Source: Octopus vulgaris
Taxonomy: Eukaryota
Direction: 5' to 3'
Assembly: GCA_951406725.2 (NCBI GenBank)
Contig: OX597840.1
Span: forward strand, 28,582,001 to 28,646,000
Length of the DNA: 64,000 bases
Numbering within the stretch: position 1 is the stretch's first letter; every line of letters begins with the position of its first letter. Positions 51,058-51,595 of the stretch are shown piece after piece. A program made the translations under genes and the position numbers. The notes below the pieces were generated by a model, which worked only from the letters and a program-made list of their open reading frames with translations, was not told the DNA's origin and searched no databases.

Positions 51058-51595
51058 AAGGGCTCTTTTACATTATTTACATATGACGGATATTTGTCCT
51101 CATCTTGTTTGTTGTTAACACAACGTTTCGGCTGATATACTCTCCAGCCTTCCTCAGGTGTCTTGGGGAAATTTCGAACCTGAGTTCTCATTCCTAAGGT
51201 ATTTTTCGATGTTGTTGTTATTATTATTATTATTATTATTATTATTATTAGTAGTAGTAGTAGTAGTAGTAGTAGTAGTAGTAGTAGTAGTAGTAGTAGT
51301 AGTAGTAGTAGTAGTAGTAGTATCATCATCATCATCATCATTATTATTATTATTAGTGTTCAGGTCACTGCTTGGAATCGAACTCGGAATCTTGGAGTTA
51401 GTAGCCCGCGCACTCTTAAGAGTGCGGGTTACTAACCCGAAGTAGCGCGGGCTACTAACGCGTAGTGGTATATCAGCCGAAACGTTGTGTTAACAACAAA
51501 CAAGATGAGGACAAAAATCCGTCGAATGTAAAAAATGTAAATAATGTAAATAATGTAAATAATTCCTCATCTCTTAAATATAGAAGGGCTCTTTT
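51058..51595 (-). mobile_element. tRNA-headed, hammerhead-tailed non-autonomous retroelement with inverted terminal copy and 12-bp TSD
   Basis: TSD aagggctctttt at 51058-51069 and 51584-51595; B box GAGTTCGATTCC (reverse complement of 51374-51385); hammerhead 51117-51162; inverted tail copy 51469-51550. Confidence 0.8.
51117..51162 (-). ncRNA. Type I hammerhead ribozyme (minimal stem III)
   Basis: GACAC CTGAGGA a GGCTG-gagagtatat-CAGCC GAA ACGT T GTGTT: 5-bp stem I, 5-bp stem II, palindromic ACGT stem III, GUU site. Confidence 0.75.

Follow-up and report, generated by a model that had tools for sequence, protein, structure and literature searches.

The insertion at positions 51058-51595 of the window (the whole 64,000-nucleotide stretch of Octopus vulgaris contig OX597840.1 that was analysed) raises the question of how a tRNA-derived head came to be joined to a tail that carries a hammerhead ribozyme of the kind found in Penelope-like elements (PLEs). 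SINEs are by definition partners of LINEs (SINEBase, PMC3531059), and an earlier note on this DNA had proposed that a SINE is mobilised here by a PLE. The parts of the insertion, its family in the genome, the element to which it belongs and the RNAs from which its copies could derive are described below in this order.

Structure of the insertion

The earlier note had described a tRNA-like head, a triplet spacer, a minimal type I hammerhead, an inverted partial copy and a 12-bp target-site duplication (TSD). All of them are present at the positions listed below, and the scrambled pieces of the head that it had placed at 51416-51469 were verified as well, the A-box piece among them. The parts of the insertion are as follows (pLTR, pseudo-LTR; RT, reverse transcriptase):

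51058..51069, plus strand: left TSD, AAGGGCTCTTTT
51067..51215, minus strand: pLTR tail, long arm, which finishes with the AATGTAAAT repeat and lacks the terminal extension
51117..51162, minus strand: minimal type I hammerhead (motif descriptor from PMC4209133)
51122-51129, minus strand: hammerhead GAAACGUU
Between 51122 and 51121, minus strand: predicted hammerhead cut, after GUU
51151-51157, minus strand: hammerhead core CUGAGGA
51191-51189, minus strand: ATG within the long-arm tail (tandem PLE copies have this tail segment and the RT ORF in one reading frame)
51216..51356, minus strand: triplet spacer (TAA)/(TGA)/(CTA), 141 nt
51357..51420, minus strand: tRNA-derived head from position 19 onward, A box lost
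51374-51385, minus strand: B box of the tRNA-derived head
51416..51469, plus strand: head-to-head junction at TTAA and three out-of-order head fragments
51460-51468, plus strand: A-box piece among the shuffled head fragments
51468..51560, plus strand: second-arm tail, 5'-truncated, with the 3' half of the hammerhead only and then AATGTAAAT repeats
51561..51585, plus strand: terminal extension of 25 nt, identical to the beginning of the PLE body; the plus arm has it and the minus arm lacks it
51584..51595, plus strand: right TSD, AAGGGCTCTTTT again (12-bp TSD)

The inverted arms (51067-51140 and 51468-51541) are 95% complementary over 74 nt, and 2-3 nt are common to the TSD ends and the element ends at this locus. 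The shuffled head fragments at 51416-51469 would stem from template jumps. Upstream of the insertion there is an exon-like segment of 27 codons (50963-51043, plus strand) with a GTAAGT donor and a weak Pfam match to Ins145_P3_rec (IP3/ryanodine-receptor; E 0.12). The insertion begins 14 nt past this donor, in the intron, and its complete hammerhead is antisense to the gene.

Other repeats were observed in the same window. A perfect 284-bp palindrome (50234-50517) is located about 540 bp upstream of the insertion. The 3.7-kb inverted repeat at 29033-32736, whose 1.6-kb arms are 91% identical and each bear a hammerhead-like motif at the outer end, is possibly an inverted insertion of another PLE family. 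Finally, a second PLE family has its hammerhead-bearing end at positions 63031-63132 (plus strand); this end is 83% like that of L030, which represents a PLE family with a T-rich pLTR and without tRNA head.

Family and copy number

The tail search of the genome (2.80 Gb, 227 contigs) gave 1535 first-look candidates. The loci obtained from searches are the top-scoring ones and were not drawn at random. A random sample was taken as a grid of 140 stretches of 10 kb on contigs C1-C11 and provided just 16-17 informative arms. This grid contained 25 insertions, around 1 per 56 kb, none of them in the last 20 stretches, and the rough genome total is ~50,000 insertions (Poisson range about 32,000-74,000). 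The viral contigs searched contained no relative of the element.

The tail stands behind the head in 67 of 75 head-selected loci and in 11 of 13 heads found in random sequence, which establishes head and tail as one repeated unit, as the earlier note required, and rules out their chance nesting. A free head-only progenitor SINE was also considered. The tail was undetected in 8/75 and 2/13 heads, no separate family was shown, and the tail-less heads inspected (L077, L084 and L238) end inside or right behind the spacer. Head-to-tail tandem units containing the head were seen at L272 and L258/L259 (146-nt and 1.2-kb periods).

The Penelope-like element that carries the head

At L005, a GIY-YIG-like end is found immediately 5' of the head. 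Of 30 loci selected with the L005 endonuclease DNA, 26 have the head at a fixed distance, ~34 nt past the ORF stop, and 29 have at least one of head and tail; thus, an autonomous-type PLE shares the tail, as the earlier note had anticipated. The 4 loci without head match look like deletions. Upstream walking led to full-length copies with a 5' pLTR (L096 and L102). The order of the PLE is 5' pLTR, a 788-codon frame (copy majority), 34 nt, head, spacer, hammerhead tail and extension. As judged from these copies, head, spacer and tail together constitute the 3' pLTR of an RT and GIY-YIG PLE of the same genome, which is therefore a PLE with a tRNA-derived head inside its pLTR.

The 788-codon frame contains DKG, GLAMG, YVDD and YKGET, and the CxxC zinc finger is absent from its RT-EN linker. 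The RT domain was recognised by Pfam (RVT_1, E 5.8e-8). A direct Pfam scan of the endonuclease part returned 0 families; its BLASTP match (E 2e-13) is P0066, a Pfam GIY-YIG-positive homologue, and the translation shows CSC and two later histidines, the CCHH-type motif of C-terminal GIY-YIG. No intact ORF was found among the copies seen, and the full-length copies translated carry stops or frameshifts. A single ORF with RT followed by GIY-YIG, DKG, no linker zinc finger and the pLTR anatomy are the features given for the EN+ PLEs of the Penelope/Poseidon group in the sections of PMC8557442 that define it, and for this reason the element is assigned to Penelope/Poseidon.

Tail and ORF share one reading frame, and an ATG precedes the hammerhead. 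The tail matches the N-terminus of P0019, a relative from another source, at 45-47% over ~110 residues, starting in the ribozyme codons, which indicates that tail and ribozyme are native to the PLE lineage; the hammerhead is, on this comparison, the PLE's own and overlaps the start of the ORF. The commonest non-CpG tail variants (33, 63 and 75) and site 132 are at third codon positions, whereas the weaker variants are not. This is only suggestive of coding constraint on the tail, and the P0019 homology is the better evidence.

Outside the octopus data, eukaryotic PLE sequences appeared in records labelled as bacterial MAGs (L400-L408), where they are probably host contamination.

The tRNA-derived head

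The best match of the head among the 10 tRNA genes of the genome compared is tRNA-Arg, the isoacceptor being provisional (50/76 positions identical with tRNA-Arg(TCT), z 7.6; also 46/74). Neither tRNA nor hammerhead was called in the Rfam scans, so that the hammerhead of the earlier note had no match there, and ARAGORN, run on the window as well as on 6 element loci and 24 related ones, never called the head a tRNA. Both identifications therefore rest on motif and homology evidence. The head folds no better than its shuffles (z -0.12). In the short arms 1.3% of the B box and 5.6% of the A box are changed, versus 3.5% and 9.4% in PLE-linked arms, but the conservation of the former is inflated because 50 of the 75 short arms were picked by the head query; that of the A box is no higher than in the remainder of the head. 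As a speculative origin of the head, the pLTR could have received the insertion of a simple tRNA-Arg SINE ending in (TAA)n, an event like that suggested for the LTRs of Cassandra and Helenus.

The window also contains another tRNA-headed SINE, of higher abundance, which is similar to the head in its first 30 nt (51 matches over the head). It is found at 11060-11650 (tandem pair), 40842-41066, 16175-16367, 33495-34184 and 49230-49410, and also at L190 and L252.

The hammerhead ribozyme

The minimal type I descriptor comprises CUGANGA, an extra base between 9 and 10.1, G10.1-C11.1, GAAA, a palindromic stem III and a stem I of 4-5 bp. The window hammerhead agrees with it, showing an extra A between 9 and 10.1, the G10.1-C11.1 pair and a palindromic ACGU stem III, and the same minimal type I form with palindromic stem III is reported for PLE pLTR hammerheads (PMC4209133). 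The motif is strictly intact in 12/100 arms. The MFE fold contains stems I and II, and its z of -1.57 is by itself not significant.

The earlier note had also held that the element is processed by self-cleavage, and this part found no genomic support. The copies extend 50-90 nt beyond the cut site, which is hit by only one of 70 truncations within the tail; a hammerhead-cut RNA as template is thus unsupported, and the integrated templates were uncut or religated. Minimal type I hammerheads are described as inactive in the monomer and weakly active in the dimer (PMC4209133), and the octopus one would need a dimer to cut. As a matter of speculation, the ribozyme could serve to dimerise two RNAs for a two-armed insertion, or to cut the start codon off the ORF.

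Two-armed insertions

From all loci fetched, 72 head-to-head pairs were collected; in the grid sample, head-to-head arms are present in 12 of the 25 insertions. The extension of ~30 nt is on exactly one arm in 66/72 pairs (on none in 3 and on both in 3), and a TSD of at least 8 nt was found in 45/72 versus 21/571 mismatched flank pairs taken as control. The PLE hallmarks attributed to the insertion by the earlier note thus extend to the family, and the pattern agrees with the PLE insertions described in PMC8557442, where partial tandems, an inverted 5'-truncated arm and a one-sided extension of 30-40 nt are given for Penelope/Poseidon. At the non-CpG marker 63, both arms carry the same variant in 40/47 pairs, around half being expected. 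Both arms are therefore mostly from the same source, which counters the participation of two different source RNAs in each insertion. In the mechanism proposed, each target strand would prime a cDNA, one from the extension and the other from the AAUGUAAAU repeat, after which these cDNAs would join head to head via microhomology.

Origin of the short copies

The 5' ends were counted in three sets not chosen on upstream sequence, with 80 de-duplicated arms that reach head position 20 and include the family-specific stretch of the head; arms ending further into the head and matches to another SINE were left out. In this collection, 69 arms stop at -13 to +18 of the head and 11 run on into the ORF (76/87 stop at the head before de-duplication). 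Twenty-seven ends are at -7 to -1 and only 2 upstream of -7. The background truncation is 1 per 312 nt in the tail and 1 per 317 nt in the ORF, and in random DNA alone 15/17 arms stop at the head (P about 3e-14). The sharp edge sits 13-14 nt before the A box, which is the distance at which Pol III starts are expected. The start of the short copies at the tRNA head is thus the one expected of a Pol III RNA, in line with what the earlier note had supposed.

These ends make it probable that the head works as the internal Pol III promoter of a nested SINE-like RNA, copied into the genome by the PLE's own protein. Pol III would start 13-14 nt before the A box, giving an RNA of ~330 nt from which ~85% of the head-reaching copies would derive, the others coming from longer RNA. 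The spacer has a median of 62 nt in short arms (n=75) versus 24 nt in PLE-linked arms (n=25; p 0.001), which suggests that short copies are themselves sources.

On the other hand, all short copies could be 5'-truncated long Pol II transcripts of the PLE and the head a passive captured sequence, a reading to which a low probability is given. Truncation would be due to RT stop or fold-back at the palindrome of the head edge, or to RNase P cutting of the tRNA-like fold. The hairpin of -9.6 kcal/mol predicted at the 5' edge of the head (-16 to +10), equalled in only 7/1187 body windows, could end reverse transcription there; many head-to-head junctions centre on the palindrome, 11/80 arms end at +1 as expected from RNase P, and long and short arms have both haplotypes in common. 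However, an RT stall is expected 3' of the structure, yet the ends come after the whole head has been copied, and the hammerhead, with -13 kcal/mol, gives no pile-up. Besides, of the 44 arms without a junction to an inverted head, 15 end at -7 to -3 and so keep native bases past the RNase P site, the sharp edge is at -7, and spacer lengths differ between the long and short classes.

The proposal of the earlier note, a separate SINE with a borrowed PLE tail, did not hold, since the PLE itself has head, spacer and tail in identical order and both sequence haplotypes are present among long and among short copies. In its fuller form, an independent lineage parasitises the PLE, which gained the head later by template switching with SINE RNA; this we regard as improbable. 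Short copies outnumber PLE-linked ones by ~6 to 1 and have the longer spacers, and the 16 nt before the PLE head are an imperfect inverted copy of head positions 1-10, like the junctions of the family, all of which would suit such a lineage. Against it, no older head-less PLE form is evident, given the deletion-like appearance of the 4/30 head-less loci; no diagnostic site separates short from PLE-linked copies, the strongest, tail 132 (p 0.006), being a CpG position; and tails are ~5-6% diverged from the majority sequence in both classes.

Pol III and the whole element

With the nested Pol III transcript as the preferred reading, the distribution of TTTT terminators bears on whether the same promoter could serve the complete PLE. 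The majority body has 0 TTTT in 2.4 kb of sense strand and 29 AAAA runs, the expectation for TTTT being 4.3 by composition (P 0.008) and 2.7 by synonymous-codon shuffle (P 0.03). Both window arms also contain 0. Seven real copies have 0-2 versus 4.2-5.2 expected, and another PLE family of the same genome has 7 in 1 kb. Of 79 related fragments fetched, 59 were examined and 35 had a TTTT expectation of at least 2.5; two of these 35 are TTTT-free, both from one family with a T-rich pLTR and without tRNA head, so that TTTT can be absent without Pol III. The test would be weakened further by the fact that the tRNA genes of the genome mostly terminate in at least five T. Transcription by Pol III of the whole protein-coding PLE, from the head in the upstream pLTR into a terminator-free RNA of 2.7 kb, is a tentative possibility suggested by these counts. 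The ORF of this RNA would begin before the hammerhead, and one promoter would serve both the autonomous element and its own SINE.

Related to this, an A/B-box-like pair lies 92 nt ahead of the hammerhead in L321 (2843-3020), a distant intact tandem PLE on a metagenome contig (38% identity) with 2 TTTT per unit and an ATG that overlaps the ribozyme core. L321 is the only one of 79 loci with such a pair between ORF stop and hammerhead; the pair was called by neither Rfam nor ARAGORN, and 9 further loci had none. The head-bearing PLE and L321 may form a small clade.

Comparison with known systems

Unlike other Penelope/Poseidon elements, the octopus PLE has a tRNA-derived A/B-box head in its pLTR and no sense-strand TTTT, and its truncations pile up at the head instead of being random. 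The internal promoter of D. virilis Penelope is LINE-like, lacks a TATA box and contains a DPE (PMC2377424). The short copies resemble tRNA-derived SINEs (PMC3531059) in being <700 bp, non-coding and of high copy number, with a head derived from Pol III RNA that has A and B boxes and a 3' end common to the RT donor. They differ in their inverted two-armed insertions and in their partner, which is not a LINE but a PLE, the whole short element being a sub-sequence of the autonomous one.

The Cassandra, Helenus and Ajax TRIMs also have a small-RNA-derived Pol III promoter in the terminal repeat, for which SINE insertion was proposed, but they are non-autonomous LTR elements, whereas the octopus head sits in a protein-coding element (PMC10886601). 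The parts of that source dealing with promoters argue that the autonomous partners of TRIMs need Pol II, and describe Pol III promoters in terminal repeats for non-autonomous elements only. In the Sm-alpha and Sj-alpha repeats of schistosomes, a type I hammerhead likewise comes after a promoter of Pol III type. These repeats are described as tandem satellites that self-cleavage sets free (reviewed in PMC6765202), and no autonomous element with the same head has been identified for them; the octopus copies, in contrast, are dispersed and show no cut at the ribozyme site. Like the octopus copies, animal non-LTR retrozymes and non-autonomous Chlamys are short non-coding derivatives of PLE pLTRs (bioRxiv 10.64898/2026.07.22.740005; PMC8557442). 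Retrozymes are, however, head-to-tail arrays with a hammerhead per unit and the octopus insertions are dispersed, single or inverted; the words 'tRNA' and 'promoter' are absent from the accessible text of the retrozyme preprint.

The O. vulgaris repeat annotation assigns 6.83% to Penelope-like elements, ribozymes being unmentioned in its accessible text (PMC13282606). A literature search that judged most matches from their listings and covered few subscription papers found no tRNA-derived PLE pLTR, PLE-mobilised SINE or octopus hammerhead, and an existing catalogue may already list the short form as a SINE or a Penelope element. Named octopus SINEs include OK and OR1; OR2 is a CORE SINE, unlike the head-bearing element.

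Implications

The formation of the PLE inverted repeats and extension is called undefined in the sections of PMC8557442 on these features, and the 72 two-armed insertions with defined ends bear on the origin of both. Inverted arms, present in about half of the insertions, could supply intronic double-stranded RNA in large amounts, in a group of animals in which A-to-I editing is known to be extensive. A PLE giving off short tRNA-headed copies would extend SINE-type parasitism to PLEs, and one that sheds them from its own pLTR would show a SINE arising inside its helper. If Pol III makes the full RNA, the element would represent a protein-coding retrotransposon transcribed by Pol III.
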